Part shown: one piece after another, positions 3,503-22,308 of the stretch | Layout of the letters: each line of letters begins with the position of its first letter | How positions within the stretch are numbered: the stretch's first letter is position 1 | DNA from: Nannocystales bacterium | GTDB taxonomy: Bacteria; Myxococcota_A; Polyangia; Nannocystales; Nannocystaceae | NCBI GenBank assembly: GCA_050633305.1 | Contig: JBOEGF010000008.1 | Location: forward strand, 320,001-384,000 | Length of the DNA: 64,000 nucleotides | Direction: 5' to 3' | The notes under the pieces: model-generated | Told to the model about the DNA's origin: nothing | Seen by the model: the letters and a program-made list of their open reading frames with translations, nothing else | Databases searched by the model: none | Program-made: the position numbers and the translations under genes

Positions 3503-3533
3503 CGAGGAACATCGTACCTGCTACCCTACGCGC

Positions 3534-4607
3534 ATGCGAGTTCCCGCCCTGCTCGCGATGCTGTCCCTGGGGGTCCTCGCCTGTCGGACCACCCCCGACG
3601 GCGTCCGTACCGAATCCTCCGACACCGCGGAAGCATCTCTCAGCACAAGCACCGCCTCGGCACCCCGCGCGCCAAGCCTGGATGCAGCGTTGGCCGACAT
3701 CACCGCAGCTCGACTCCGCGAGCACGTCACGTGGTTGGCAGCGGACTCGATGCGCGGACGTGCGACGCCCTCCATCGAACTCGACGAGGCCGCGAAGTAC
3801 CTCGCAACAACGCTCGCCAACAGCGGCATCGAACCTGGGCCCTCGGGCGACCGCATGGTCACCGTCGCGTGTGGCCCGGGTGGAGAGAACGCGTTCAACG
3901 TCCTTGGCATGCTGCCCGGCGCAACCGACGAGGTCGTGATGGTGACCGCCCACTACGACCACGTGGGCGAAGCGTCAGAGGGCGACGACCGCGTCTTCAA
4001 CGGCGCCAACGACAACGCCTCGGGGGTCGCCGCAATGCTCGCGGTCGCGCACGCGCTCGCACGGGCACCCGCGCAGCCCCGACGAACGCTCGCATTTGTC
4101 GCCTTCTGCGGAGAAGAACACCACTTCCGGGGTTCGGCTGCATTCGTCGCCGATCCGCCCTTCCCACTGTCCCAGGTCGTCGCGATGTTCAACCTCGAGA
4201 TGCTCGGCCACCCGGACCCCACGGACGCCAAGCGGGCGTGGGTCACAGGCCACGCGTACTCCTCACTGCACGACTGGCTGGATCGCGGCGGAGAGCCGGG
4301 CGGGGTGACCTTTGTCTCCGGCAAGGCGATCGGACCTGCCGAAGGCAACGCTTTCGAGCGCTCCGACAACCTCCCTTTTGCGCAACACGGCGTCGTCGCG
4401 CATACGATCGCTGCCGGTCCGCTCGACGAGCACTACCACGCCGTCAGCGACGAGACCTCGCGCGTGGACTTCGACGCGATGGTCCCCATCGTCCGTTCCA
4501 TCGCTCGAGCGGTCGACGAACTCGCGCGGGGTGAAACGTCCCCTGGTTGGACCAACGAGGCCCCTGAGCGCTTCACTCGTCGAGCATCGAGTACGTCTCG
4601 CCAGTAG
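3534..4607 (+). CDS. M28 family metallopeptidase, lipoprotein
   Basis: VLAC lipobox; TAHYDHVG, NGANDNASG, FCGEE, NLEMLG, RSDN and HYH motifs. Start at MRVPALL. Confidence 0.9.
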   Translation: MRVPALLAMLSLGVLACRTTPDGVRTESSDTAEASLSTSTASAPRAPSLDAALADITAARLREHVTWLAADSMRGRATPSIELDEAAKYLATTLANSGIEPGPSGDRMVTVACGPGGENAFNVLGMLPGATDEVVMVTAHYDHVGEASEGDDRVFNGANDNASGVAAMLAVAHALARAPAQPRRTLAFVAFCGEEHHFRGSAAFVADPPFPLSQVVAMFNLEMLGHPDPTDAKRAWVTGHAYSSLHDWLDRGGEPGGVTFVSGKAIGPAEGNAFERSDNLPFAQHGVVAHTIAAGPLDEHYHAVSDETSRVDFDAMVPIVRSIARAVDELARGETSPGWTNEAPERFTRRASSTSRQ

Positions 4608-5505
4608 CTTCGATCGACATCATCCAAAGGCGCTGCGCGGCGACTTCGTCGTGGGAGGCGCGGTTCGACTCGACACGAACTGGGTATCCGCGAACCTGTC
4701 CGAGCCCCTGAGGCCCAAAGAATCCTCCTCCGCCGACAGGCTCTCCGACCGCCGCGAAGACGCTGGGCATCGCCCCCATTCGGGCGGGCTGGGCCACGAG
4801 ACGGTTGGTGAACTCATAGAAACGCCCGGTGAGCTTGGCGCCCGCGAGCTTCGGACCGACCCCTTGCAGGTTGGTGGAGGAGTAGCCAGGGTGGGCCGCG
4901 ACCGAGCGAACATCGGCGTCGGCGTTCCGGAGCCGGCGGTCGAGTTCGTAGCAGAACAGCAGGTTGGCCAGTTTGCTCTGCGAGTAAGCGCGCCACTTGT
5001 CGTAGGCGCGTTTTCCATGCAGGTCCTCAAACCGCATCGAGCCAACCTTGTGCATGAGCGAACTGACGGTCACGACACGGGCGGCCGGTGTCTCGAGAAG
5101 CCTCGGCATGAGCGCTCCGGTCAGCGCGAAGTGGCCGAAGTGGTTGGTGCCCAACTGCATCTCAAACCCGTCCGCGGTCTCCGTCCTCGGCAGCGCCATG
5201 ACCCCGGCGTTGTTGATCAGGACATCCAGCTTCGCGTGCGCCTCTTGAAACGACGCAGCGAACGCCCGGACGGAAGCGAGGTCAGCGAGGTTGAGCGGGA
5301 TGAACTCGACCGAGGCCTTCGGGTGCTGTGCGCGGACCTGCTTCATCGCCGCTTCGGCCTTCGACTCGGTACGACACGCCATCACCACGTGGGCTCCGCG
5401 TCCGCTCAACATATGCGTCGTCTCGAGCCCCAAGCCGCTGTTCGCTCCGGTGATGACAATGGTCTTACCGGCCAGGTCGGGAATGTTTGCCTCGGTCCAG
5501 GACAT
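4573..5505 (-). CDS. Short-chain dehydrogenase/reductase (retinol-dehydrogenase-like)
   Basis: TGANSGLG, NNAG, TNHFGHF and catalytic YSQSK. Converges on the M28 gene with a 35-nt overlap. Confidence 0.93.
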   Translation of the reverse strand: MSWTEANIPDLAGKTIVITGANSGLGLETTHMLSGRGAHVVMACRTESKAEAAMKQVRAQHPKASVEFIPLNLADLASVRAFAASFQEAHAKLDVLINNAGVMALPRTETADGFEMQLGTNHFGHFALTGALMPRLLETPAARVVTVSSLMHKVGSMRFEDLHGKRAYDKWRAYSQSKLANLLFCYELDRRLRNADADVRSVAAHPGYSSTNLQGVGPKLAGAKLTGRFYEFTNRLVAQPARMGAMPSVFAAVGEPVGGGGFFGPQGLGQVRGYPVRVESNRASHDEVAAQRLWMMSIEATGETYSMLDE

Positions 5506-5752
5506 CGCGGCGCGAGTGTAGCGAGCACTCGCGAGGGCGTCACCGTCGCCGGACAGCAAGCGCTGTGTCGCCAGCCAACGGCGGGATCTCCCGTGTCAGA
5601 GCGCCAGGGCCCGCGGTTCAGCCCCCGCACGGGTCGGGCAAGACGCTCGGAGTCACGGAGCAGACCCCACTGGTCGCTCCGTGCCCGCACGTTCTGGCCC
5701 CGCCACCCGTCGAGGAGTCCCTGACGGTGGGGCCGAAGCATGGCCAGGCTCG

Positions 5753-8008
5753 CTACAGAACGATGACAAACGCGTCCTTCTCCCGGAGCGCCGCGTGAGC
5801 CGAAGAGTCTCGCACCACCACGTGGATCGTCTGACTCCGCATCGAACCCGCTGCGAGACGCACCGCGATCGGGCTCATCACATGTTCTTCGATCACCCGC
5901 TTGAGCGGCCGAGCCCCACGGGTGGGATGCCAGCCGAGTTCCGCGAGTCGGGCACGAGCCTGTGGATCGACCGACAGCACCAACTCGCGCTCGCGTAGCC
6001 CCTGACGTTTCCCAGTCTTGCTCAGCTCGAGATCGACGACGCGCAGGATGTCATCACGGGAGAGCAGACCGAACGGGACAACGTTGTCGATGCGGTTGAA
6101 GAACTCCGGTCGGAAGTGAGCTCGCACGGCCCCAAAGAGAGCGTCGTGGGATGCGTCCGGCGCTCCAAACCCCGCGCTCGCGGTCTTCTGCACCCCCAGG
6201 TTGCTCGTCATGACCACCAACGTCATTCGGAAGTCGACCAGGCGGCCCTCGCTGTCGGTCATCCGCCCTTCCCCAAGCATCGCAAGCAGAAGGTCAAACA
6301 CCTCAGGGTGTGCTTTTTCAATCTCGTCGAGCAGCACCAACGACAGCGGCTGTGCGCGGACCTGTTCGACCAGGCTCTGCACGCCCTGGCCGACCGACAG
6401 CAACCGTTGGCCGGACCCCGGAAGCATGTACTCGCTCATGTCCAGCCGAACCATGCGCTCACTGTCCGAGAACATGACCCGGGCCAGTTGCTTGGCGAGT
6501 TCCGTCTTGCCGACACCCGTCGGGCCCACCAAGAAGAGACTGCCGATGGGGCGATCCGGGTCGCACAAGCCAGCCTTGAAGCGCGTCAGGACGCCGGCTG
6601 CCGTGTGGCAAGCGTCGTCCTGTCCAACGACGCCGTTGCGAAGGCGCGAGGCGATCTGCTCCCGCCCAGCGACCTCGCGGTCGGAGATCAATGCCAACGG
6701 GAGGCCGGTCGAACGTGCAAACGCCTCGGTGACCGCCTGTGCGCTCATTTCCTGGGGCTCGTCGCTGGGCTCGGTCTGCGCGAGCCAGTCGAGAAAGCGA
6801 AACCCTTTTCCCGGAAACCCACGATCTCGAGCAAAGAACTCGAGCAGCTGGACCATGGTGCGCAGCGCCTCGCTGGAGAAGGTGCGGTCCGCATCCAACC
6901 GGGCCTGATACTCCGCGAGCCGGTGCGGCATCACGGAACTCGTGGTCGGCTCGACCCTCACCACGAGAAACTGCGAGACGAAGGCAGGGTGTTGAGCGCT
7001 GAGCCGTTCGTACTCCTCGACGTTGCACTCCGCGATCACCACGAGTTCGCCAACGCGCATCGAGGCAGACAACATGTCGGCGATCGACGTGCTGGTCTGT
7101 GTGGCGCAGATCGGAGCCAACCGGTCCACATACAACACGTCGCGCGAAGCCGAGAGCTCCTCGATCAGGTCGAGGCAGCGCTGCTCCCACTCGCCGAGGT
7201 ACTTCATCCCTGCAACGATGCGGTCCGCGCTTGTGGACCACACGCGCGGAGCATCGGCACCGCGGCGCCCCAACGAACGAGCCAGCGAGCGAACCCACGT
7301 GGACTTTCCCGCACCCGGAGGGCCGACCAGCAAGACGGAGCGAGGATGCTCGCCCGCCATGAGCTCGACATAGCGCGGCTCGACAACGTCGCCGATCACC
7401 GGTCGTCTGCGACTCTTGCGCTGCTCGGCCGTCATGTCCTGCGCGACCGCGTCGAGAGTGTTCTGCGCCTCGAAACCGGAGGACCAGCTCGAAGGCCGAG
7501 CTCGGGTCGCATACGGCGGCGTCCACGACACGATGCGTTCGTCTTCGAGCCCGCGGAAGTCGAACATCGAACGAGCCTCCTCCCCAAGCATCGACTGGCC
7601 GATCGCCTGCCGGATGACCGTGGGTGCCATGTCGACGTCCTCGAGCACGAACCACCATCCGAACCGAGGAAGCATGACCAGGGCGCCACCGTCGGCGTTC
7701 TGGGTCCAGGCATAGCTGACCTGCAGCGGGATGGTCTGCTTGCCGATGACGGTGCGCTTCTTGACCACCCGCTGGGGGTTGACCTGCACCTTGACTCGGC
7801 GGACCTGCAGCGTCTCTTCCCACAGGAACCCCTCCAGCCGCTCGTCCGTCTCTTCGAGCGCGAGCGAGAGCTGAGAGAGGACAACCTCTTCGCTCGGGCC
7901 GTGCCCGGCGAGCGGTGAGGACAGCGTGCCACTGCGCGAGAGCAACCTGCCGGTATGGCTCCCGTCGTGGTGGGTGACGAAGTGAACCCGGTACGTAGGC
8001 CGAGCCAT
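5753..8008 (-). CDS. ClpA/ClpB-like double AAA+ ATPase, shortest of three paralogues (no C-terminal extension)
   Basis: GPPGAGKS; GPTGVGKT, RLDMSEY, LLDEIEKAH, MTSNLG, RPEFFNRID, GARPLKR. ATG 8008 overlaps the upstream TAA (TAATG). Confidence 0.9.
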   Translation of the reverse strand: MARPTYRVHFVTHHDGSHTGRLLSRSGTLSSPLAGHGPSEEVVLSQLSLALEETDERLEGFLWEETLQVRRVKVQVNPQRVVKKRTVIGKQTIPLQVSYAWTQNADGGALVMLPRFGWWFVLEDVDMAPTVIRQAIGQSMLGEEARSMFDFRGLEDERIVSWTPPYATRARPSSWSSGFEAQNTLDAVAQDMTAEQRKSRRRPVIGDVVEPRYVELMAGEHPRSVLLVGPPGAGKSTWVRSLARSLGRRGADAPRVWSTSADRIVAGMKYLGEWEQRCLDLIEELSASRDVLYVDRLAPICATQTSTSIADMLSASMRVGELVVIAECNVEEYERLSAQHPAFVSQFLVVRVEPTTSSVMPHRLAEYQARLDADRTFSSEALRTMVQLLEFFARDRGFPGKGFRFLDWLAQTEPSDEPQEMSAQAVTEAFARSTGLPLALISDREVAGREQIASRLRNGVVGQDDACHTAAGVLTRFKAGLCDPDRPIGSLFLVGPTGVGKTELAKQLARVMFSDSERMVRLDMSEYMLPGSGQRLLSVGQGVQSLVEQVRAQPLSLVLLDEIEKAHPEVFDLLLAMLGEGRMTDSEGRLVDFRMTLVVMTSNLGVQKTASAGFGAPDASHDALFGAVRAHFRPEFFNRIDNVVPFGLLSRDDILRVVDLELSKTGKRQGLRERELVLSVDPQARARLAELGWHPTRGARPLKRVIEEHVMSPIAVRLAAGSMRSQTIHVVVRDSSAHAALREKDAFVIVL

Positions 8009-11000
8009 TAGTCTTGCTCCTTCGCGTTCATCGACGCGCCCATGCGCAGCAGCCAGACCGTGTCCAACGCCTCCCGAAGACTCGCGCTGCGACCCCGGTA
8101 GGCGTACATCAGCGGGTAGTCCTCGACGTCGATCCACGCGAGTGCGCCGGGTGTGGGGGGGTCGAACGCGTAGCGCCGCACGATAGGGAGTAAGCCGTCG
8201 GGGTTGGCCGGGGGGCTGTCCGCGGTCTCGATCGCGGTCGAGAACGCCTCTCGCCCCGCCTCCAAGCGATCGAGATGCTCCTCGAGTTCAACGCCGTAGC
8301 CAGGGAGCGCCCGCACCCGAACGACTTCGGTTCCCCCGCTGACCGAATCGCGAACATGCGAGCCTTCCTCAGGTCCATAGAACGCCTGGGCGCCCGGCCC
8401 CACGATCCGAAGCAGCGCTCGACGGGGGCCTGAGACGACGGCCTCCGGGTGCGAGTACCGACGACCAGCGTCGTCGATGATCAGGCTCGCTTCGACATCA
8501 CCGCGCCCGGCTCGATACGCCTGAAGTAGCCAGTCGAACAGACCTTGGGACGACTCACCAAACCGCGATGCCCGATGGACGCCACTGACCCGAGTCAGCT
8601 CGATCAGGACCACGTGCGCCGAAGGGTCCGCCCCGCGCTCGACCGCGCGTTCGAGGAATCGAAGGGTGCCCAGCGTTCGCAAGAAGTCCTGGCGCCCCTG
8701 CAGCGGAAGCGAAGGACCCGGCTGCCGCCCCAGCACCCGGACCTGCACCTCAATTCCCCCCCCTCCGAAAGGTTCGGTTCGGGCCTCGGTCGCGAACGAT
8801 TCGTGTTCCACAATCTCCCCTTCGTAGTCGGCCCGCTCATCGAGCGGACGCGAAGCAGCGAGCATGGGGTCGTACTCGAGTTGCATCCGTAGGTCGTCCG
8901 CGAGGCCGCGGACCTCCGCCCGCAACGCCTCCAGGTCGGCGGCGTCCGACTGGCCCTCGGCGCTCTGGCGGGCCACCTCGTCGCTGAGGGTGTCGCTGAG
9001 CCGCGCCAGAGCATCGGAGTCGGTCAGCGCTTCCGCACGCGCCAAGGCTTCGGGGACCTCGGCCCGAAGTTGCTTGCCCGAGAATGCCAGCGCCGCTTCG
9101 AGGGGACTGCTGGATCCAAAGGCTTCTGCCTCGGCCAGCGTTTCACTGTGGAGGCGAAGCGCCCCCTCTCGCTCGAACAACCACAACATCCGCATCGCGG
9201 AAGCCTCCGAAGCTGCCAGCGAGTCCGCCAGCAGGCTCCCCACATTCGACTCCAGATAACGTTTTAGGGATCGAGCCCCATCCTTGGCCGCGAATCCTTC
9301 TCGGACGACCCGCGCGACGACGCTGGGCGTGTAACGAACGAAGACGTTGCGGTCGACCAACCCACGGCGTGACACCAGCTTGTCGAGCTCGCGGCGAGCG
9401 ATACTCGATGCAGCCTCTCGACCGAGCGGTCCGTACTCCACCACATGATCGATCCGGTTGAACAGCTCGGGGGGAAAGAACGCTCGAACCGCGGCCCCCA
9501 CGTCGGAGATGTCCGCGTCCTCGCCTCCGAATCCGACCGAGGGCGTCTTCTTCGCGCCAAGGTTCGACGTCATGATCACGATGGTGTGCGTGAAGTCGAC
9601 GCGTTGTCCGGCGGCGTCGGTGAGGCGGCCGTCGTCGAAGAGCTGAAGCATCAGGTTCAGCACCGAGGGGTCCGCCTTCTCGATCTCATCGAGGAGCACA
9701 ACCGAGAACGGCTGCGCGCGGACCTTGGCGGTCAGGGTGCCCTCGGGGTTGAAGCGGTCTCCGATGAGCCGAGACGGCGCGTCCGGAGTCCCATACTCAC
9801 TCATATCGAACCGCAGCAGGCGCGCAGTCGTTCCGTAGAGGTAGTCCGCGAGGCACTTGGCCATCTCGGTCTTCCCGGTCCCGGTCGGGCCGGTGAACAG
9901 AAAGACCCCGAACGGCCGTGAAGGGTCACAGAGCCCGGCCTTGATGCGTACGACGACGTCGCGCATCGCGGCAACGGCCGCCTCCTGCCCCATGATCTGC
10001 GAACGCAGCTGCCGCGACACCGACTCCGGATCGAGCGGTCGCTTGGCGTCGAGGAGCACCGCGGGCATGCCCGTGCGTCCCGACAGGTGCCCGATGACTT
10101 CCTGAGCACCGATGTCGGGCCGTCGCGTGCTGCCCTCACTCTGCTCGTCAAGAAGCGAGCGCGCGACTTCGGGTCGACTCGAGGCCCGTTTGGGTGTCGG
10201 GCCCCAGTGCCCGGTGGCCATCCGCGCTTCGACTGCGGTCTTGGCCTCACGCAGCCCGCAGCCGACCTTGGCTCGGTACGCCTTGATCGCCAGGATCTTC
10301 TTTCCGAGCTTGAGAGCATCATCGGCCTCGCGCAGGTTGAGGGGCCCCTGCGAGTCTCCGGTCGCGAGCTGCCGCAGCAGGTCCAGCGCCTTGCCCGGTT
10401 GTGCCCCTGCCCCGCCCAGGCTCCCGCCCAGGTCGTGCAGCATGCGGAAGATCAGCGGGTCGAACGCAACGCCACGCTCGCGCTCATACCGCCTCGCCTC
10501 CTGCACCAGCATCCGCAATGTCTCGTCACGCTCGGTCGGCTCGACGAACACCGTGGTGAACGCGGCGGCGAATCCCGGCGCCTCGTCCTGGAGCTGCGCA
10601 AGGCCTTCAGGCGAGCACTCGGCGAATGCCATCAGCTCGTTGCGCATCATCGGGCCACGGAAGAACGTCGCGAGGGCGCGATCACTGCCTCGCGTTTGTC
10701 CGATCCGCCCCCAGCCCGCGATGTCTTCGATCCACAGCACGCCGCGATGCTTGCGACAGGCTTCCACGATGTTGACGCAGCGCTCTTCCCACTGGCCCAG
10801 GTAGGACATGCCCGCGATGACTCGCTGTCCACGGACCTTCCAGACCTTGTGGATCTTGTCCAGGTTGCGGTGGGAGGGGTAGTCGTCCGCGCTGAGTAGG
10901 TCCACCACCAGCTGTTGAAGCAGGCAGCTCTTGCCCGCCCCGGAAGGACCCACAAGGAGCACGGATTTCTTCTGCCGACCACATGCAAGCTGGGCCAAGG

Positions 11001-11679
11001 TGTCGCGATACGGCGCGCGTGCGATGACCGGGTCCGCGACGCCGTCGACAACATGCATCGTGGCGCATGAGCCCAACCGGGTGAGGAGCGCCTCACCGGT
11101 CGGCCCCGATCCCCCGCCTAGCAGCGCCGGCGGCTTGTCTTTCTTTTTCTCGAGCTTGGCCTCGAGCGGTTTGGGCGAGATGGAGAACGCGACCAGCTCC
11201 AGCTTGTCCTTCTTCTCGGACTCCAACGAGGATAGCTCGTCCTCGGGAAGGTCCGCCCAGTCCACCTGGAAGAACGCCTTGGCTTCATCGGCCAACTCCC
11301 GCTCCTCCTCGTGCACGAACCAGGCGCCGGGCCGCAACGGGTGATAGGCGACGAGAATCGGGCCGGGCACCGCGCCTCCCCGGGTTCTCGGCTCGACCAC
11401 GATCGGCACCGTCCCGTAGAACCGTGAGCGCGCACCGCCGTTGCGCATCGAGAGGTCCAGCCGCACCAAGTGCAGCCGCCGTCCGCGAACCGTCTCCAGG
11501 GGTTCGAGTTCGTGGGGGAAGAGTTTCGCGACCCGTTTGCGTACCCCGTCCATGAGCCGCTGGCGGGCCTTGGCGGCACTCGAGGCGGACACCGTCGTGC
11601 AGAATGGACCCACACCAACCGTGGTCCAATGCACACGGCGTCCGGAGACCCGGGAGAAAACCGAGAGTCTCACCTCCAT
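8008..11679 (-). CDS. ClpA/ClpB-like double AAA+ ATPase with L7/L12-CTD-like insert and release-factor-like C-terminus
   Basis: [48 protein letters not shown]. Insert [25 protein letters not shown]. Start MEVRLSV lies 1 nt from the upstream stop and has a GGAGG RBS. Confidence 0.88.
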   Translation of the reverse strand: [1223 protein letters not shown]

Positions 11680-11680
11680 C

Positions 11681-14600
11681 TCAGGCCTCCTCCTGATCCA
11701 GGGAGTCCGCAGCGCGCCCAGCAAACTGGACCCGCTCCAATGCCGCGGCGTAGTCGGTCAACGCCGAAAAACTAAACTGTGCACGAGGCTCTTCGTGCAC
11801 CACTTGCCACCGGCCATCCTGCACCGTCCAACCTCTCGCCGGCGTCTCCCGGAGGAGTTCATTCGTCTTGCGGGCTGCCGGGATCACGTACACATCGCCC
11901 TTGAACGGCTTCCGCGGGCACAACGTGGTCAAAGGAATGTCGTAGGTGTCGCTCATCGTCGACAGCTCCAGGACATCGACCCTGTCGCCGCTCTCCGCTT
12001 GAAAGTGCCACAAGCCCGTTTCGTGGCCGAGCAGCGGCTCGGCCAGACTTCCACGGACTCGAATCAAGACCTCCGACCACCGTGAACGCGCCTTTTCAGT
12101 CTCGGTCTCTCGTCGTTCCCGCCACCACCCGAGAGTCCGCGGAGGGCCGTATCGTCCCTTGGCTGGCCACCCTTCCTCAGACTCAGGGTCACCGACGCGA
12201 TGCAGTGTGACGTCCCAACCTCGGGCCCGTGCCGCCGCGTCGATGATCGACAGGACCTCATGGGTCCGACGTCCCCCCGGTGAGCGCGCGAACAGACAGA
12301 TGCGGTCGCCGCCCTGAAACGAGGCGAGCAGTCGGACGAACGCGCGTTCGAAACGTGCGAACGCCTCGAGTGCTTCGGTGACGAAGAGGTCGGCCCCCGC
12401 GCCTTCGAGCACGGCCGCCATCGCGAGTTCCTCCGCGTCCGCGATCGCGTCGGCATGTTCCGTTGCTTCTCCCATCACCCCCTGGAGCAGTCCGAGCTCA
12501 GCGGCGGTCTGGCCCGCGCCTGCGGTGGTGTCACTGGGCTTGGCACCCGCGAGATCCGCGATCAGATAATCCAGACGTTCGCGAATGGTCTGAACGCGGG
12601 GTCCGTACATGCATCGGTCGGCGGTCCGTCGAAGCGCCGCGACGGATCCGAGTTGATGCACCCCCTGCCGACGCTGAGTCCCTAGCGGACGCATCACGGA
12701 GATCGACAGATCCCTCGATTCCTCGAGCGCCTCACGGGTGAACCCTTCGGGGAGTTCCGGAGACTCGTCGCCCGGACGCGAGACCGCGAGCAAGGCACCA
12801 TCGAGAACCTCGGCGTGTGTCGCCATCGCAGCACAGACGGGTCCAACCAGTGCAGACTCGAGATGCCTTCGGAGCGCCCGCGCGCCGTACTCCGCCGAGT
12901 ATCCAGCCTCGGCGAGCCCATCGAGCGCTTGCTGCGAGACCTCCAGTTCGGTCGCACGTCCCAGCAGCCCATCGCGTTCGACGACCTTTCTCATGGCGAC
13001 CTCGGCGACCGCCGAGACCTCGCTTCGCTGCAGCGCTGAGAAGGGAATCACCCGGTCGATCCGCCCCACAAACTCCGGCCGAAAGTGCTTGTCGACCTGC
13101 TCCAAGTAGTAGGACGCGATCGCGTCCGGCTCATTGGTCGCGGTGGAGGCAAACCCCGCGTCAGGGCGCCTCAATGCGGCCCCAAGGTTGCTCGTCATGA
13201 TGATGATCGCGTTGTTGAACCAGGTCGTTCGGCCACGAGCATCCGACAGACGCCCCTCGCCACACACCTGCAGCAACAGATCGAACACAGCGCTGTGGGC
13301 CTTCTCGATTTCATCCAGCAGAATCACGCAAAACGGCTGCTGTCGGACCCTCCGGGTCAGCTCCCCCTCCTCTCGGAGCGTCCCACGGATGAGCCGGTCG
13401 GCGGCGAGCGGGTCCATGTACTCGGACATGTCAAAGCGGACCATCCGGTCGCCGCTGCCGAACAGGAACTGCGCCAGGGTCTTCGCGACCTCGGTCTTGC
13501 CGACTCCGGTTGGTCCGATGAACAAGAAGTTCGCCAGCGGTTTACCGGGCGGCTGGAGGTTCGCCTTCACCATGCAGACCGTCTCTGCCACCTTGCGCAC
13601 CGCCTCCTGCTGACCGATCACCCGGCGGGCGAAGAAGCGCTCGACCTCATCCAGCTTGACCGCCCGATCCTCCTTCAGCAGGAACAGCGGAATCCCCGAA
13701 CGAGCAGAAAAGGCGCGATACACCTCCGTCGGCCCGATCGATTTCGGCGAACCATCCTCGCTCACCTCGGCTTCATGAATCGCCCGCAACTCGTCGTGGA
13801 GCCGAATCGCCTTTCCGGGAAAGGCCTCGTACGCGAGGTAGCGCTCACACAGGTCGAGCAAGGGCGGAAGCGCCGCGCTCGCGAGGGAGGGTCGATGTGG
13901 TTCGTGCGCACGTGCGTGCGCGGCCCGAGCCTCGAGGACCGGGCGCGTCGCATCTTTGTCCAGCGGCTCGACCGTCACCCGAGACAACGCAGCGAAGAAA
14001 CCGACGTGCATCTTCTCGTAGTGCGAGACCTGCTCGGGCGTGAGTTCGCCGACCACCCGCACTCGGTCTTGGGTGACGTACGGAAGCATCCCCGACACCA
14101 TGTCGCCGATCTCCCCAGGACGCCCGGAGAGCAAGTCGCCGAGGTTGTCGAAGTACACGATCGCATCGAGTTCCTCGGCGGCCTTCATCACGTCGGCGAC
14201 GCGCTGCTCGAGTTCGCCGAACCCCGACTGACCAGCGACGAGCTGTGCCCCTGAAGTCGCGATGACCATGCGGCCACCGAGCGGGTCGGGTCCGCTCCCG
14301 TGCACCGCCCGAGAGACGAGACCGTGCATCAACGCCGACTTGCCCGCGAGCTCCCGCCCGATGAGCAGAACACTGAGCCGTTCGCCCCCGCCGAGCAGAC
14401 CCGTCAGGGCATCGATCTCGTCCGAACGCTCGAGCACGTCCGGCTGACGTTCCTTGCGATGCAACGACCGCAGCGGGGTGCCGATCTCCGAGAGAAGCTT
14501 CTCCCCTGCTCCACGCTCCCGACTCTTCGCCCGTTTGCGTCGGCTGTGCGCCCGGGCCCCCGCATCCGCCGCATCTTCGCGACTCACCGAGAGCTTGAGC

Positions 14601-15082
14601 TGGTGAAGCCCGTGCCGCGCGGCCGGCAACCGCGTGAGCATCTCGGTTGCGGAGAGACCCTGAACCTTCGCAGCTCTCTGTGCGGCCTCCGCAACAACAC
14701 GATGCAGGTCATCAGCCTGCTCCACGTAGACGAATGTCTCCAGCGGGAGAATCTGGACCCAGAAGGACCGGTCGTGCGGGATGATGACGCAGGCCATCGT
14801 GACTGGTTTCGTGACGGCGATCCGCCGAGGAAGATCCGAGCGAGACAACAACACCGGGACCTCCACCATCGTCGCGTCACTCGGCAGCGAAAACGTCGCC
14901 AAACTCGCCGCAGGGACCTTCTGGAGGTAGAGGGTGAGGAAACGCTCCTGTTGTTGGAGCGCCGCCTCCACCGAGGTCGTGCGGCTCGCCAACTTCGGGT
15001 CGACCAACGGGTAGGCGTACACGCCACCGCTCGTCATCTCCCTCACCACCATCGTCGCGTCGAGCTCGACTGCCGTCGCCAT
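11681..15082 (-). CDS. ClpA/ClpB-like double AAA+ ATPase with RF2/PCRF-like C-terminal region
   Basis: [49 protein letters not shown]. C-terminus contains [24 protein letters not shown]. Confidence 0.9.
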   Translation of the reverse strand: [1133 protein letters not shown]

Positions 15083-15137: not shown

Positions 15138-16457
15138 ATGATGGCTCGGACTGCATTGAACTCGACCTCGGCACTTCTTCTGCTCACGATGTTCAGCGGT
15201 CCGGGCTGCGGCGACGACAGTCACGCTGACGAGACGATGGGCGAGGGCGGTACCGAAGTCGGCTCAACCGGAACCCCCGCAACGACCGGACCCGTCGCCT
15301 CGACCGGAGCCCTCGAAACGGACGGGGGGAGCGGGGACGAGAGCAGCACCGGGTCCGACAGCGAAGACGGGCCCCAGCCCTCGGGTCCCGACCACGCCAT
15401 CGACCCCGCGGTTCCAGGGCCCTACCCGGTCGGCGTGATGACCGTCGAGTTCGTCGACCCCACACGCGAGGGCGGACGCCCGCTCATCACGGAGATCTGG
15501 TACCCGGCGACCGACGATGCGATCGGCATGGACACTGTCACCTACACCCCGGAGGACATCTTCCGCCCGGACGCGATCGAAGTGTTGGGCAACGACCTGT
15601 CCTCGGAAATCGCCACCTCGGCGGTTCGAGATGCGCCCATGCGGGGCGACGATGGCCCATACCCCGTCGTGTTCTTCAGCCACGGTTCGGGTGGAATTCG
15701 CATGCAGTCCACCTACTACACGGTGGACATGGCGAGCCACGGGTACGTCGTCATCTCGCCTGATCACATCGGCAACACACTCAGCGACATCATCGTCACC
15801 GGTGACCTGACCACGGCCGACCTCGCTGAGAGTCTTGGAAACCGCCCTCTCGATCTCTCGTTCGTGCGGGAGGAGCTGGAACTTCTCGAGGCGGACGACC
15901 CGTTGTCCGCGCTCATGGACTTCGAGCATGTTGGCGTGACCGGGCACTCGTTCGGCGCTCTCACCTCGTTGCGGTGGATGGGACAAGGCGCGGACGTCGA
16001 TGCCGTCGTCGCCCAAACGCCGCCGAGCATGGAGCTGAACTGGCTCGCGATCTCGACCCCGCTCTCGGACTTCACCACCCCGATCCAGCTTCAGGTGGGT
16101 GGAGTGGACCTCACCCTTCCCGCGGAGACCAACGCGGACACGGTCTGGGAAGCCGCGTCCGAGCCCCGCTCACGAATGACCTTGAGCAACGCAGGTCACT
16201 TCACCTTCAGCGACATGTGCGGGCTCAACATCGCGGACATCGAGGCGGTCGCCAAGCTCGGCGTATCCTCGGCGCTCGAGGATGGCTGTACAAAGGAAAA
16301 CACCGACCCCGAGATCGCCGCCGCTGCGATCCGACACTACGGTATCGGCTTCTTCAACGTGTACCTGCGCGAATCCACGCCGACGCTCGATCTGCTGACC
16401 CAGGAGGCCGGAGAGGCCATTGCAGGCGATCTGCTGACCTGGGAAGCCGAGCTTTGA
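15138..16457 (+). CDS. Secreted/lipoprotein alpha/beta hydrolase (dienelactone hydrolase / PAF-acetylhydrolase-like)
   Basis: Signal with Cys (GPGC); PGPYPVG, YPVVFFSHG, nucleophile GHSFG, AGHFTF. Confidence 0.85.
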   Translation: MMARTALNSTSALLLLTMFSGPGCGDDSHADETMGEGGTEVGSTGTPATTGPVASTGALETDGGSGDESSTGSDSEDGPQPSGPDHAIDPAVPGPYPVGVMTVEFVDPTREGGRPLITEIWYPATDDAIGMDTVTYTPEDIFRPDAIEVLGNDLSSEIATSAVRDAPMRGDDGPYPVVFFSHGSGGIRMQSTYYTVDMASHGYVVISPDHIGNTLSDIIVTGDLTTADLAESLGNRPLDLSFVREELELLEADDPLSALMDFEHVGVTGHSFGALTSLRWMGQGADVDAVVAQTPPSMELNWLAISTPLSDFTTPIQLQVGGVDLTLPAETNADTVWEAASEPRSRMTLSNAGHFTFSDMCGLNIADIEAVAKLGVSSALEDGCTKENTDPEIAAAAIRHYGIGFFNVYLRESTPTLDLLTQEAGEAIAGDLLTWEAEL

Positions 16458-16524: not shown

Positions 16525-19428
16525 GTGTATTCGACGCAACACTACGGAGCCGACCGAGACGGCGTCGACACCAACGCCGACGCCGAGGTCACCCTCGCTG
16601 ATGGCGAATCCGGCCCGTCGCAGGCTCGATCTCCGTTCGAGCGCGGCGAGACGCTCGGCCGCTACGTGGCACTCGATACGCTGGGGTCCGGCGGAATGGG
16701 CATCGTGCTCTCGGCGTACGACTCGAAGCTCGACCGGCGCGTCGCCCTGAAACTTCTCCATCCCCACACCGGGGCCGACCCCGAAAACCACGCCCGGCTG
16801 ATCCGTGAGGCCCAGGCTCTGGCCAAGCTCTCCCACCCCGGCGTGGTCGCTGTCTACGACGTCGGTGAGCTTCGAGGCCAAGTCTTCATCGCGATGGAGT
16901 TCATCGACGGGCCAAACCTCCGCAGCTGGACCCACGAGGCGAAACGCAGCACGGCTGCGGTCCTCTCCGTGTTCCGCGACGCCGCCCGCGGGCTGATCGC
17001 GGCGCACGACGCCGGCATCGTTCACCGCGACTTCAAGCCAGACAATGTGCTGATCGACCCCAAGGGTCGTGCCCACGTCACGGACTTCGGCCTCGCCCTG
17101 GAGTCCCACGAAGTCGTGCAAAACCTGTCAGCCTCGTCGCGGTCTGACTCGTCACACTCCAGTTCGTCTCGACTGACCGAGACGGGCATGGTGATGGGCA
17201 CGCCCGCGTACATGCCCGTGGAGCAGCACGCAGGGAACCCAACCGATCATCGCTCCGACCAGTTTTCGTTCTGCGTATCGTTCTACGAAGCCCTGTATGG
17301 GGTACGCCCGTTCTCCGGAGCCAACGCGACCGAGCTGTGCCTGTCGATCAAGCGGGCAGAGATTCCCCCGCCCCCCGCAGGCGTCTCGGTCCCCCGACGA
17401 GTGCACCGCGCCATCGTCAAGGGCCTCGCGCTCAAGCCCGAAGGACGGCACGCCTCGATGCGCGCGCTGCTTCGCGCAATCACCCCGCCCACGCGAAACC
17501 GCCGCACGTGGGTCTTCGGAGGGCTTGGAGGACTCACCATCGGGGCCGGTGTTGTGGCCTTCGCGGAGCCCCCGGCCCGGCCTTGCTCGTCGTTCCGGGC
17601 ATCCATCGAGGACGTCTACGGGAGCGAGCAAGAGTCGAAGATTCAAGCCGCGTTCGAGTCCTCCAAACTCGCGTATGCGGGAGCGTCGTTCGAAGCGACG
17701 GACCGAACCCTCGACCGCTTCACCGACGCCTGGGCGACCGCTGCGACCGACGCATGCCTCGCCACCGAGCGAGGCGAGCAGTCCGACCATATGCTCGACC
17801 TCCGCATGCACTGCTTGGATCGGGCTCGGTCCCGCTTGAGCGCGACCGTTGAAGTCTTGAGCGAGGCCAGCCCGGAGATTGTCCACCAAGGCATGGCTCT
17901 GGCATCCAACCAGGTGGAGCTGGAACTGTGCGGGGACCTCGAGGCGTTGCAACGCACCGTGGTCCTGCCTGCGGATGCCGAGGAGGCCGCCGAGACAGAG
18001 CAACTGTTCACCGCGATCGACCGCATGGAAGCGATGCGTAGCGCAGGCAAGAAGGAGGACGCCAAGATGCTGTTCTCCGACTACGAAACCCGCCTGGCGA
18101 GCAGCGACTTCCCCCCCGTCGTCGCCTCCGCAGCCTGGATCCAAGGACGGCTGGTGGGAACCGACAACAGGGCGAGCGAAGCCATCACGCACTTCAGGCG
18201 CGCCTACTTGGTGTCCCTCGAACACGGTCTGGACGGACTCGCTGCCAACGCCGCGAGTTCTCTGGGCTTCTACTACAGCGAGTTCCAGCTCGACTTGGTG
18301 GAGGCGGAGCACTACCTCGATGTCGCTGCGGCGCTTGCGAAAGCCTCGGGCTCTGTTCAGGCCCAATCCGGGGTCGCCGGCAACCTGTCCACCCTCCGCA
18401 GACGGCAGTCCCGCTACGATGAAGCGGTCGCGTCCGCGCAAGAGGCTCTGAGCTTGGCGAAGACGCAGAAGGCCACCCGCCCCTTGCAGGTCGCCGAAGT
18501 CCACGTCCAGCTGGCGAACGTCCTACGACTACGCGATGGACCCAAAGCCGCGATCCCAACCCTGCTCGAAGCGCGCGACGATGTCCTGGCCGAGTTGGGG
18601 TCGGTCCACCCGGTCCTCGTCGGCATCTACCGCGAGCAGGCGGGGGTCGCCCGCGAACTCGGCAACTACGACGAAGCGTTTGTCCATGCGAGTGCCGCCC
18701 TCGAACAAGCGCGTGCAGCCTATGGAGAAGGCAGCCTCGACGAGGCCTATGAGCTCGCCAACCTTGCGACCATCGCCGGTTCGTTGGGCCGCAAACGGGA
18801 GTCCCTCGACATGCTCGCGCGCGTCGACGAGGTGTTCGCGCGCGAGCAGGGGGAAACCCACCCCGTCCGTGCGGCGGTGATGAACAACCGAGCGACGATT
18901 TTCACGGAGCTCGAGCAATGGGACGACGCCGAGGCATCGTTTCAGGACGCGCTGCGGATCGCCCAAGCGAACGCCGATGGCCCCGACGGTCTCTCGGTCA
19001 CTCTCAACCGAAACCTCGCACTCGTCGCCCTGTACGGGGCCGAGCTTTCCAAGGCAAAAAAATACGCAGATGCAGCCCTCGCCGGTGGGCTCGGTGTCCA
19101 TGGCGAGGACCACATGGACACCGGCATGACGCATGCCGTCCTCGGCCGGATCGCGCTCGCACACAACGAGTTCGAGGTCGCGCGTGCCTCCTTGCAACGT
19201 GCCGTCACGATCGGACACGACCTGTTCTCGGAGGAGGCCGCCACGCGCTTCTACCTCGCGCGTGCTTTGGTGGAAGACCCCGCCTCAACCCCGGAGGAAA
19301 CACGCAGGGGACTGTCCATGGCCCGAGCCGCCGAAAAGGAAATCGCAAAGGCGAGCGACGTCGAGCGTACGCACACCGAAATCCTTGAGTGGCTCGGCGA
19401 ACACGACAAGGGGTTCAGCCCAGGCTAA
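16525..19428 (+). CDS. Ser/Thr kinase with TM segment and C-terminal TPR region (array copy 1)
   Basis: LGSGGMG, VALK, HRDFKPDN, DFG, GTPAYMPVEQ; then a hydrophobic segment, a Cys-containing helical region and TPR-like repeats. Confidence 0.92.
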   Translation: MYSTQHYGADRDGVDTNADAEVTLADGESGPSQARSPFERGETLGRYVALDTLGSGGMGIVLSAYDSKLDRRVALKLLHPHTGADPENHARLIREAQALAKLSHPGVVAVYDVGELRGQVFIAMEFIDGPNLRSWTHEAKRSTAAVLSVFRDAARGLIAAHDAGIVHRDFKPDNVLIDPKGRAHVTDFGLALESHEVVQNLSASSRSDSSHSSSSRLTETGMVMGTPAYMPVEQHAGNPTDHRSDQFSFCVSFYEALYGVRPFSGANATELCLSIKRAEIPPPPAGVSVPRRVHRAIVKGLALKPEGRHASMRALLRAITPPTRNRRTWVFGGLGGLTIGAGVVAFAEPPARPCSSFRASIEDVYGSEQESKIQAAFESSKLAYAGASFEATDRTLDRFTDAWATAATDACLATERGEQSDHMLDLRMHCLDRARSRLSATVEVLSEASPEIVHQGMALASNQVELELCGDLEALQRTVVLPADAEEAAETEQLFTAIDRMEAMRSAGKKEDAKMLFSDYETRLASSDFPPVVASAAWIQGRLVGTDNRASEAITHFRRAYLVSLEHGLDGLAANAASSLGFYYSEFQLDLVEAEHYLDVAAALAKASGSVQAQSGVAGNLSTLRRRQSRYDEAVASAQEALSLAKTQKATRPLQVAEVHVQLANVLRLRDGPKAAIPTLLEARDDVLAELGSVHPVLVGIYREQAGVARELGNYDEAFVHASAALEQARAAYGEGSLDEAYELANLATIAGSLGRKRESLDMLARVDEVFAREQGETHPVRAAVMNNRATIFTELEQWDDAEASFQDALRIAQANADGPDGLSVTLNRNLALVALYGAELSKAKKYADAALAGGLGVHGEDHMDTGMTHAVLGRIALAHNEFEVARASLQRAVTIGHDLFSEEAATRFYLARALVEDPASTPEETRRGLSMARAAEKEIAKASDVERTHTEILEWLGEHDKGFSPG

Positions 19429-19440
19429 CGGGCGGCCGCG

Positions 19441-22308
19441 ATGGAGACGCACGGCTACGAGGGCCCCGAGCAAGCGACGCGTTCGGACGCTGAGGCCACG
19501 GTGACCGACGCGACGCGGGACGACGCCCCACGGCCTCCTTTCGCGCGGGGAGAGTCTCTGGGGCGCTACGTCGTCCTCGACACCCTCGGCGCGGGAGGCA
19601 TGGGCATCGTCTTGGCGGCGTACGACACCACCCTCGACCGGCGGGTCGCTCTGAAGCTGCTGCATGCCCACACCTCCGCCGATCCCGGAAACCACGCCCG
19701 CCTGCTCCGCGAGGCTCAAGCGCTGGCGAAGCTATCTCACCCGCGTGTCGTCTCGGTGTACGACGTCGGCGAGCTGCGAGGCCAGGTGTTCATCGCGATG
19801 GAATTCGTCGACGGCCCAAACCTGCGCCAGTGGCTCCGAGAGAAGGAACGAACGCCAGCCCAGATTCTCAAGGTCTTCCGCGGCGCTGGGAAAGGACTGC
19901 AAGCGGCGCATGACGCCGGCATCGTCCACCGCGACCTCAAACCAGACAACATTCTCATTGGGCCCAACGGCAAAGCCTACGTCACAGACTTCGGCCTGGC
20001 ACTCGAGGCCGACGTGGTCCCCAAGTCGTCCAGCACGCGCTCGTCGTCCGCCTGGTCGTCCTCCCGCCTGACCGAGACCGGTGCTGTGATGGGAACGCCC
20101 GCGTACATGCCGATCGAGCAACACGCCGGTCTCATGACCGACCACCGTTCCGACCAGTTCTCGTTTTGCGTGTCCCTATTCGAGGCTCTTCATGGCCTCC
20201 GACCGTTCTCCGGCACGAACGCGAGCGAACTGTGTCTGGCGATCGGGCGCGCCGACCTGCCGACGAGTCCGAACACCGTGGCGCGCAGGGTCCGACACGC
20301 GCTCGCCCGCGGGCTCTCGCCCAAGGCCGAAGACCGTTTTCCGTCAATGCGCGCCCTACTTCGGGCCCTCTCCCCACCGACCCGCAGCAGTCGCACGTGG
20401 GTGTTTGGCGGCGTAGGAGGACTCGTCCTCGGCGCAGCTCTCGTCGGTCTTGCCGACCCCTCGAGTCCCCCCTGTGCGTCACTGGGCGACCGCGTTTTGG
20501 GTGTCTACGGCCCACAGCAGCGAGAGCAGCTCGAGTCCGCGTTCGCGGCGACCGGGCTGCCGTATGCAAAGGCATCCTCCGTAGCGACGACCGCAGCACT
20601 CGATGCCTTCGCGACCCAGTGGACGTCCTCCGCACAGGAGGCCTGCCTGGCGTCCGAGCGCGGCGAGCAGTCTGGCGCGATGCTCGACCTCCGGATGCTC
20701 TGTCTCGATCGCGGGCTCCTCGCGTTGTCGGCGACGGTCGAGATCCTCGCGACGATCGAACCGAAGGAGCTTCGGCGATCCGCGAAGATCGCCTCCGGCC
20801 TGCCGAACCTCGCGCTGTGCGAGGACCTCGAAGCGCTCCCGAAACTCGCCATCCTTCCGGCGACACCCGAGCAGGCCCACGACGCCGAGACCCTGCTGCC
20901 GATCGTTGACCGCATCCGAGTGCTCGTCATCGCCGACCGACAAAAAGAAGCCCAGACGCTCCTCGACACCCATGCACAGGAACTCGAGCGAAGCACGTAC
21001 CCGTTTGTGCAGACGCTGCACCGGACCTGGCAAGGACGACTGCTCTTCTCGCGACGCGAACAAGCGACCCCCGAGGTCCTCCGTCAGGCACACCTGCTTG
21101 CCCTCGAGCACGGACTGGACGCGCAGGCCTCACGCACCGCCACCGCCCTGGGCACCTGGCATTCGGACAAGAAGCAGTTTGACGCCTCGATTCGATGGTT
21201 CGAATCCGCGGGGGCGCTGGCGCGAGCGGCCGGCTCGACACGACTCCAAGCCACCGTGGCCTCGACGTCGGCCGGGGTCTACTCCCAAGCAGGACGCCAC
21301 GATGACGCGATCGCCCGCACTCAACATGCACTCCAACTGACCGAGGACGACGAATCGTACCCCCCAAGAGCACGGGTCGAACTCCTGCTGTCCCACGCAA
21401 GGGCACTGCAGTACCGAGACGGTGAGCGAGCCGGACTCGAGGAGATTCACGAAGCCCGCGCGCTCATAGGGGAACTCGACGGCGACGCTCCGGTGATCGC
21501 ATCGATCGAGACCAAGCTGAGCGAGTTTGCGATGAACCGGGATGACGTTGCCGCGGCGCTCACCCATGCAGAAGAAGCCCAGCGCATTACGGAGCTCCAC
21601 TACGGACGCGACTCCCTGCGATACGCCGCTGCGCTGACCAACGTCGCCATTCCGATGAAGGAGCTGGGCATGGTCGACGACGCGCTCGGCCGACTCGCCG
21701 AGGCTCTCGACATCTTCCGAGGTCCCTCCAACTACGCACCGGGCACCGCACAAGTGCTGATCAACATGTCGGTCGTCCTGCTGGTCGACGGGAGAGACGA
21801 TCAGGTTCGGCGACGACTCGACGAGTTGACAACCCTCATTCACGAAGCGCACTTCGAAGGTACCGAGCTCCAAGCGCTCGAGTTTCAGCTCCGGGCCTCT
21901 GTCGAGCGTCAGGACGGGGAGATCGAGCGGTCGCGAACCCACGCGACTCAGGCGCTAAAACTCCTCGAGAAGCAGTTCGGCGAAAAGCACCATCGTCTTG
22001 CCGATGCGCGCACGCTCCTCGCGTACGCCGAGCTTGAAGCAGGCGAGTACGACACCGCGCGGCGGCTTGTCGAACGGGCTCGGGAGGCCCGCACAACGGT
22101 CCCCGCCGATCGGGCGCTGGGTTCGTTCGTCCTCGCGCGGATTCTCTGGGAGACCGAGGGCGCTTCACCGAGTGACCGAAAGCAAGCGGTTCAGCTCGCT
22201 CGTTCTGCCCTCGCCGACTACGAGCAGTCCCCGCCCTACGTTCGCCACCGCGCAGAGGTCCGTGCCTGGATCGAAGCCCACGAGAACGACGTCGAGCCGA
22301 CCCCGTGA
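19441..22308 (+). CDS. Ser/Thr kinase with TM segment and TPR region (array copy 2)
   Basis: LGAGGMG, HRDLKPDN, DFG, GTPAYMPIEQ; same architecture as copy 1. Confidence 0.92.
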   Translation: METHGYEGPEQATRSDAEATVTDATRDDAPRPPFARGESLGRYVVLDTLGAGGMGIVLAAYDTTLDRRVALKLLHAHTSADPGNHARLLREAQALAKLSHPRVVSVYDVGELRGQVFIAMEFVDGPNLRQWLREKERTPAQILKVFRGAGKGLQAAHDAGIVHRDLKPDNILIGPNGKAYVTDFGLALEADVVPKSSSTRSSSAWSSSRLTETGAVMGTPAYMPIEQHAGLMTDHRSDQFSFCVSLFEALHGLRPFSGTNASELCLAIGRADLPTSPNTVARRVRHALARGLSPKAEDRFPSMRALLRALSPPTRSSRTWVFGGVGGLVLGAALVGLADPSSPPCASLGDRVLGVYGPQQREQLESAFAATGLPYAKASSVATTAALDAFATQWTSSAQEACLASERGEQSGAMLDLRMLCLDRGLLALSATVEILATIEPKELRRSAKIASGLPNLALCEDLEALPKLAILPATPEQAHDAETLLPIVDRIRVLVIADRQKEAQTLLDTHAQELERSTYPFVQTLHRTWQGRLLFSRREQATPEVLRQAHLLALEHGLDAQASRTATALGTWHSDKKQFDASIRWFESAGALARAAGSTRLQATVASTSAGVYSQAGRHDDAIARTQHALQLTEDDESYPPRARVELLLSHARALQYRDGERAGLEEIHEARALIGELDGDAPVIASIETKLSEFAMNRDDVAAALTHAEEAQRITELHYGRDSLRYAAALTNVAIPMKELGMVDDALGRLAEALDIFRGPSNYAPGTAQVLINMSVVLLVDGRDDQVRRRLDELTTLIHEAHFEGTELQALEFQLRASVERQDGEIERSRTHATQALKLLEKQFGEKHHRLADARTLLAYAELEAGEYDTARRLVERAREARTTVPADRALGSFVLARILWETEGASPSDRKQAVQLARSALADYEQSPPYVRHRAEVRAWIEAHENDVEPTP

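Follow-up and report, generated by a model that had tools for sequence, protein, structure and literature searches.

Apart from the tails described here, the proteins of release-factor fold that the searches brought up (RF1, RF2, mtRF and PrfH) act on ribosomes. The release-factor paralogues covered in a review of the family either keep the hydrolase domain or are stand-alone proteins, and PrfH (RFH), with RtcB, and ArfB/ICT1 are paralogues that retain a subset of the domains and have a rescue role (PMC6514570). Contacts with the decoding site are made by the helix-5 tip and the recognition loop, the tip reading the first stop-codon bases together with the loop, according to the available part of bioRxiv 2021.03.10.434893. 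As for the Hsp100/Clp ATPases, substrate is bound by the pore tyrosines, and translocation suffers when these are mutated, as described in the accessible sections of bioRxiv 2023.02.02.526786. No prior description of a system joining Clp and release factor was found in the literature searched, subscription papers lying mostly outside it, and the string 'clp' occurs 0 times in the available text and supplement of PMC6514570.

Three consecutive genes on the minus strand of the window, by which is meant the whole stretch of 64,000 nucleotides analysed here (Nannocystales bacterium, assembly GCA_050633305.1, contig JBOEGF010000008.1, positions 320,001 to 384,000), encode Clp-like ATPases, and the last ~330 residues of the first of them, gene 1, form a module derived from a release factor (Table 1). 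The Pfam AAA_2 and ClpB D2-small domains of this protein end near residue 752, N-terminal to the tail. An earlier note, made by eye, had aligned the region with domains 1 and 2 of RF2; the five segments that it matched are all in frame and in order (residues 833-1027, positions 12586-12002) and lie inside the interval 11890..12590 that it gave, but the module reaches 11687, where it includes a domain-4-like part. The note had also proposed a profile search against PCRF and the PDB, and a structure prediction. Searches with the single sequence came back blank: the last 339 residues matched no Pfam family, a release factor was present in 0 of the 29 PDB matches at E<=10, NCBIfam gave nothing, the ESM Atlas returned no usable match for either tail or N-terminus, and a PCRF search of the source genome did not pick up gene 1, leaving the window protein without a PCRF match. 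A family profile, by contrast, built from 30 sequences (the window tail and the 29 other loci returned), brought up 22 PDB sequences at E<=1; RF1, RF2 or mtRF1 accounted for 21 of them, with RF2 at the top (E 3.2e-6), and PCRF itself gave weak matches in 9 of 30 members of the tail family. Against an alignment of 29 release factors from the same class (15 RF2 and 14 RF1), the tail profile attained a probability of 96 (E 1.8e-9). Domain 1 and domain 2, tested separately with the best 150 of 258 clusters of tail relatives, each matched release factors by themselves while the reversed controls failed, which bears out the resemblance to RF2 domains 1 and 2. The dN/dS values between gene 1 and two relatives range from 0.07 to 0.30 by region, and the 0.16 obtained for the tail in these two comparisons indicates purifying selection. 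The most conserved residues of the tail are novel ones (the insertion described below, R24, R25 and E90); its net charge is uninformative, with a median of -6 in 132 tails and similar values in release factors.

The AlphaFold model of the gene-1 tail (pLDDT 92) matches the RF1/RF2 fold, so that the structure prediction also came out in favour of the relationship. All Foldseek matches listed were RF1, RF2, mtRF or PrfH chains (best E 4.4e-7), with low whole-chain TM-scores of 0.2-0.43, and structural alignment superposed model residues 130-339 on RF1 residues 103-350 (161 residues, 3.2 A, Z 13.3). This alpha/beta part is diagnostic, whereas the helical part (residues 1-129) is not when taken alone, as unrelated bundles score up to Z 12.3 on it. 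Family profile and predicted fold together confirm that the tail descends from a class-I release factor, of which it keeps domains 1 and 2 and, as assigned by fold, probably a domain-4-like end; the domain-4 profile test was negative for the window family and weak (E 0.005) for the Myxococcus type. The earlier note was right about domains 1 and 2, but had missed domain 4, the release-factor tail of gene 2 and the conserved three-gene operon. GGQ occurs nowhere in the gene-1 protein and SPF nowhere in its tail, as had been noticed; among the best 150 relatives the letters GGQ appear in 8 and SPF in 5, at scattered positions. Anatomy shows the tail to be non-hydrolytic, the catalytic domain 3 being missing, and this upholds the proposal of a non-hydrolytic mimic. 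Anatomy likewise shows that it is unable to read a stop codon: the helix-5 tip and the SPF or PxT recognition loop are both lost. Because both codon-reading elements are gone, binding would be independent of the stop codon if the tail binds at all, and it is in this conditional form that the corresponding suggestion survives. The domain-2 hairpin of gene-1 tails carries a conserved insertion of ~30 residues. This hairpin presumably faces the small subunit. Ordinary docking in the A site is made less likely by the insertion, which is conserved and sits at the decoding end.

Table 1. Features of the three-gene locus (positions in the window).
Feature	Coordinates	Strand	Basis
Gene 1: 1133-aa Hsp100/Clp-like AAA+ protein (N-terminal domain, D1, D2, release-factor-derived tail)	11681..15082	-	ORF, Pfam
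Gene 2: 1223-aa paralogue, start one base past the gene 1 stop	8008..11679	-	ORF, Pfam
Gene 3: 751-aa paralogue without release-factor tail, ATG overlapping the gene 2 stop	5753..8008	-	ORF, Pfam
Gene 1, N-terminal domain, ~168 aa	14579..15082	-	homologous to the MXAN_4823 N-terminus, weakly to genes 2 and 3
Gene 1, D1 Walker A, kept; downstream D1 Walker B without catalytic glutamate	14336..14359	-	motif comparison
Gene 1, D2 Walker A; D2 Walker B, sensor 1, arginine finger and sensor 2 also intact	13493..13516	-	motif comparison
Gene 1, D2 pore-loop position, without GYVG and shortened by five residues relative to the genome's own ClpA/ClpB	13364..13396	-	motif comparison
Gene 1 tail, homologue of RF domain 1 (GTPase-interacting domain), helical bundle	12314..12679	-	profile (probability 91, reversed control 0.8), model
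Gene 1 tail, RF domain-2-like alpha/beta core, helix-5 tip glycine motif gone	11951..12313	-	profile (probability 94, reversed control 0.2), structural alignment
Gene 1 tail, family-specific insertion in domain-2 hairpin, W-P...G-P-P-R and two short helices	12083..12193	-	alignment, model
Gene 1 tail, short variable turn at the position of the RF2 SPF codon-recognition loop	11981..11998	-	model, alignment of tail relatives
Gene 1 tail, ~38-residue linker at the usual insertion point of RF domain 3 (GGQ hydrolase)	11837..11950	-	model, structural alignment
Gene 1 tail, probable RF domain-4-like part, three strands and terminal helix	11687..11836	-	fold only; sequence similarity undetectable
Gene 2, L7/L12 C-terminal-domain-like insert between D1 and D2, lineage-restricted	10228..10299	-	motif match
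Gene 2, second, more diverged release-factor-derived tail, no GGQ, no SPF	8011..9063	-	fold; weak by sequence alone

The window family alone cannot separate RF1 from RF2 as the source of the tail (95.5 each), and it is through bridging families that the choice can be narrowed. With a profile built from 97 Myxococcus-type tails, every one of the 15 RF2 sequences scores above all 14 RF1 sequences, and the window tail is found as well (E 8e-6). In a sister family (L060/L141:2629-5877 in genome G010, and P0171-P0177), the Clp core is followed by an RF2 that is almost complete, its domain 3 decayed and without GGQ; this tail lies above the PCRF cut-off and matches prfB best (E 2e-23, versus 4e-7 for prfA). 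By way of these families, comparison of sequences points to RF2 as the probable source, and the sister family appears to show the fusion at an earlier stage. One database entry bears the name 'ClpA/protein subunit release factor A', and the fusion is thus visible to automatic annotation. The N-terminal domain is missing from P0172-P0177 of the sister family, and no paralogue came to light within the 15 kb of G010 that were fetched. Frames of Clp size (>=1000 aa) gave no PCRF match in two sets of 71 genomes, one from the order (around G381) and one from the phylum (around G382), the family model used being one that misses the window gene too; weak matches below the cut-off, possibly due to chance, were seen in open frames of 560-910 aa in G391, G400, G422, G485 and G505. 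In four single genomes there was no match to the A2 query, which means not found with that query.

The tail of gene 2 was recognised by a different route. Its sequence profile found no release factor in the PDB and gave a probability of 3 against the release-factor alignment; its predicted fold matches RF1 with Z 14.8 (next unrelated chain 8.0; Foldseek E 3.8e-6) and it is homologous to the tail of gene 1, and it is on account of this fold and this match that it is assigned as release-factor-derived. Of 300 genomes of the class, 38 have relatives of the gene-1 tail, and 35 of these 38 have the gene-2 tail as well. The order 1-2-3 is found in 18 of 20 regions picked for diversity from the 38 genomes with gene 1, the other two being a region that ends at a contig edge and one with gene 1 alone; from the coupled reading frames and this fixed order we infer that the three products are subunits of one hetero-oligomer. 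Named records of the gene-1 family belong to Myxococcota. In the fetched regions neither a translation gene nor any other neighbour is conserved across lineages beyond the three genes. In the window they are flanked by Lgt-family, M28 peptidase, short-chain dehydrogenase and PAF-AH-like hydrolase genes (1025-2305, 3366-4607, 4573-5559 and 15138-16457, respectively), which are conserved beside the operon only in close kin; farther out, 16525-19428 reads by eye as a Ser/Thr kinase with a helical-repeat tail and is followed by open reading frames of similar length (19441-22308 and 22305-25163). The N-terminal domain of gene 1 has no match in Pfam, the PDB or the Atlas and belongs to no known family; for a HicB-like reading, made by eye, none of the three gave a supporting match. 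Several irregular members were met in the survey. In G212 (contig C5) the operon is clearly broken, the only such case met, with gene 1 and gene 2 (L099, L079) ~240 kb apart; two copies of gene 1 occur in G239; operon genes are split over frames in L122, L124 and L127, by frameshift or assembly error; and P0103 (1741 aa) and P0224 (1957 aa) have long added extensions, P0224 with PF13699.

The ATPase core is equally distinctive. A quick tree was made from 61 rows, with six others that could not be cut left out; in it genes 1, 2 and 3 have a clade apiece (SH 100) within a group separate from ClpA/B/C (SH 90). Scores of ~300-340 bits fall far short of the NCBIfam equivalog cut-offs for ClpA, ClpB, ClpG, ClpK and ClpV (885-1900). 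The D2 motifs are kept in most of the 83 gene-1 relatives (Walker A in 83, Walker B in 78, sensor 1 in 82, arginine finger in 72, sensor 2 in 75), and these motifs suggest that D2 is an active motor. GYVG, which the genome's own ClpA and ClpB retain, is found in none of 78 readable gene-1 relatives (83 examined), none of 13 gene-2 proteins (21 examined) and none of 19 gene-3 proteins (20 examined). Since the D2 loop of 7 of the 13 readable gene-2 proteins contains an aromatic residue, some grip by gene-2 subunits would still be possible; the D1 pore aromatic is also retained in most gene-2 and gene-3 rows. At the D1 Walker B position, 53 of the 83 gene-1 relatives are readable, and DE occurs in none and EE in 2; the glutamate is gone in the readable gene-2 and gene-3 rows as well. 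With the D2 GYVG loop deleted in all three subunits and this glutamate lost, the label 'unfoldase' under which the gene-1 protein was originally proposed appears doubtful for all of them. The loop after sensor 1, at the position of the ClpP-docking IGF/L, usually has a G-F or G-L motif, often with a non-aliphatic first residue; the motif is present in 21 of 21 gene-2 proteins examined and was not found in 19 of 82 gene-1 relatives. GYVG-less Clp proteins of ~750 aa from Planctomycetes and Acidobacteria (P0281, P0287, P0291) group with the clade.

A related three-gene operon occurs in a named Myxococcaceae record (L128), and relatives of its gene 1 include ABF91057.1, which is MXAN_4823 of Myxococcus xanthus, followed by MXAN_4824 and MXAN_4825 (PMC11423568, Table S1, in the part available). 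MXAN_4823-4825 are annotated as ClpA/B family, and the same GYVG-less triple is present in three genomes whose proteins are 71-97% identical to those of M. xanthus. MXAN_4823 resembles gene 1 in the N-terminal domain (E 1e-12) and in the tail (profile probability 98.8); the 61-row tree gives no clear pairing of MXAN_4823 with gene 1, and no release-factor tail was detected in MXAN_4824-type proteins. On the shared N-terminal domain and tail, MXAN_4823 is probably the M. xanthus counterpart of gene 1. According to the accessible part of PMC6617876, MXAN_4823-4825 are up after 8 h of chloramphenicol (log2FC 3.57, 2.67 and 2.61) and in chloramphenicol-adapted cells (1.47, 2.17 and 1.92), in a response of 625 genes up at 8 h, clpC among them, and 101 genes up in both conditions; on these figures, induction of the operon is suggestive and unspecific. 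The release-factor tail of MXAN_4823 is not mentioned in the available portions of PMC6617876 and PMC11423568. The M. xanthus operon resembles that of the window in having three genes, GYVG-less (in its close relatives), with an RF2-like tail and N-terminal domain on the first, and differs in its distant lineage and in having no second tail detected.

A further possible link to translation comes from inserts resembling the C-terminal domain of L7/L12. They occur at three sites, namely in gene 2 of the window, at the C-terminus of L018, where a similar insert is matched by Pfam L12, and, in a larger form, in the domain-2 hairpin of L128 (5841-9428), and the motif is present in 10 collected proteins; their recurrence leans towards a translation link. 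Small L7/L12-like domains are mobile in many bacteria. The source genome has intact canonical RF1 and RF2, and the tails would for this reason serve an extra function. In the RF2 frame (L032, contig C6) no start codon precedes domain 1, which is presumably what a programmed prfB frameshift would entail, and the genome encodes two more GGQ proteins (C20:145606-145791 and C18:355912-355968), perhaps PrfH- or ArfB-like.

The reading that we prefer, tentatively and at a little under an even chance, is that of a hetero-oligomeric, non-threading, ATP-driven remodeller that would dock on arrested ribosomes. The three genes would supply the subunits of a single Hsp100-derived ATPase, in which D1 binds ATP, probably without hydrolysing it, and D2 acts as the working motor, lacking the loop that grips and threads polypeptide. 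The RF2-derived body (domains 1, 2 and 4) on two subunits would be the ribosome-docking arm, sensing arrested ribosomes irrespective of codon; conformational changes in D2 would then pry open, reset or take apart the stalled complex or a factor bound to it, with ClpP perhaps docked through the G-F loop. This reading is favoured by release-factor homology, in profile and fold, on two subunits; by the clean loss of the inserted catalytic domain, with the sister family as intermediate; by the tail dN/dS of 0.16, the fixed order and the joint presence of both tails; by the rise of the M. xanthus operon in both chloramphenicol conditions, as given in the accessible part of PMC6617876; by the L7/L12-like inserts recurring at three places; and by the intact RF1 and RF2, to which the tails would be an addition, and the action on ribosomes of RF1, RF2, mtRF and PrfH, the proteins of like fold. 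It is weakened, however, by the loss of the helix-5 tip and recognition loop and the insertions in the domain-2 hairpin, by the lack of a translation gene among the conserved neighbours, by the breadth of the 625-gene response in that same source, and by the open pairing of MXAN_4823 in the tree and the MXAN_4824-type proteins without a detected tail. Its bolder form is a bacterial ribosome-remodelling machine in which a three-subunit, pore-loop-less Hsp100 ring uses RF2-derived arms to sense drug-arrested or damaged ribosomes codon-free and resets or splits them at the expense of ATP; this we regard as possible, with the probability clearly on the other side.

The loss of invariant release-factor surface motifs also fits a reading in which the fold was recruited for binding or assembling proteins, as substrate adaptor or subunit scaffold, within a stress-induced remodeller of some other complex and with no role at the ribosome. 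Conservation in the tail is highest at new residues, the decoding-end loop accepts large insertions, and chloramphenicol induction fits general proteotoxic stress, which is the authors' own reading in the accessible part of PMC6617876; yet all three non-catalytic domains are retained on two subunits over large distances, the hydrolase alone being dropped, and the L12-like inserts recur, so that we hold such a takeover to be unlikely, if worth keeping in view. Conflict-driven release-factor paralogues have been argued for (PMC6514570), and a catalytically dead mimic of patchy distribution (38 of 300 class genomes) could be a decoy or sensor, a bait for phage or rival proteins and peptides that target release factors or the A site, which sets off the ATPase. 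The operon is a fixed three-gene unit with no effector gene and no variable partner, however, and the PADLOC matches (2023 library) are confined to the common AAA core, with none on the tails; a decoy we consider fairly improbable. The proposal closest to the earlier note, an A-site mimic tethered to a threading unfoldase that extracts nascent chains or ribosomal proteins and feeds them to ClpP, is compatible with the D2 ATPase motifs, intact in most of the 83 full-length relatives, with the G-F/G-L loop of all gene-2 proteins examined and with the aromatic residues left in the D2 loop (7 of 13 gene-2 proteins) and, for genes 2 and 3, mostly in the D1 pore. Against it stand the absence of GYVG in every readable subunit (0 of 78, 0 of 13 and 0 of 19), whose tyrosines are needed for substrate binding and translocation (bioRxiv 2023.02.02.526786, in the sections available), and the lost D1 Walker B glutamate, and we judge it quite improbable. 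Blank single-sequence searches and the scores of unrelated helical bundles on residues 1-129 could be taken as signs of a chance likeness of helical, low-complexity sequence, or of a non-functional relic; this is largely refuted and only marginally credible, for the alpha/beta part matches alone by profile and fold, reversed controls fail, the tail is under purifying selection and bridging families exceed the PCRF cut-off.

Should the hetero-oligomeric remodeller act on ribosomes, it would represent a new route of bacterial quality control, and if ribosome remodelling is its function, the counterpart in logic of Pelota and Vms1-Cdc48 in bacteria. Even with no ribosome role, it would be a Clp clade minus its threading loop, probably hetero-oligomeric. 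The counterpart in the model organism M. xanthus responds to a ribosome-targeting drug, making the question directly testable.

Among known systems, the tail is closest to RF2 and RF1 (PrfB/PrfA; Pfam PCRF), with which it shares the domain 1 bundle and the domain 2/4 core in the same order, and from which it differs in the removal of domain 3 with its GGQ, the loss of the SPF/PxT loop and helix-5 tip, the domain-2 insertion, and its position behind an AAA+ ATPase. PrfH and ArfB/ICT1 keep the hydrolase domain and drop others, whereas in the tail the opposite has occurred, the hydrolase being dropped and the rest kept; no RtcB gene was seen near the operon in the fetched regions. Like ClpA, ClpB and ClpC, the proteins of genes 1-3 have two AAA+ modules, a D2-small domain, intact D2 motifs and in many cases the G-F loop, but they form a separate clade far below the NCBIfam cut-offs, with no GYVG, a degenerate D1, an unfamiliar N-terminal domain and coupled paralogues. 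Dom34/Pelota, a non-hydrolytic release-factor paralogue that splits ribosomes, and Vms1/ANKZF1-Cdc48, in which a release-factor-family protein is tied to an AAA+ motor, can be compared only in the way they work (PMC6514570), since they have the unrelated aeRF1 fold, are separate proteins and show no homology to the tail. The parts are known, the assembly apparently new: with the hydrolase excised, what is left of the release factor has been joined to an AAA+ motor in two genes of a single operon, and the result, failing the defining features of both parent families, fits neither release factors nor Clp.
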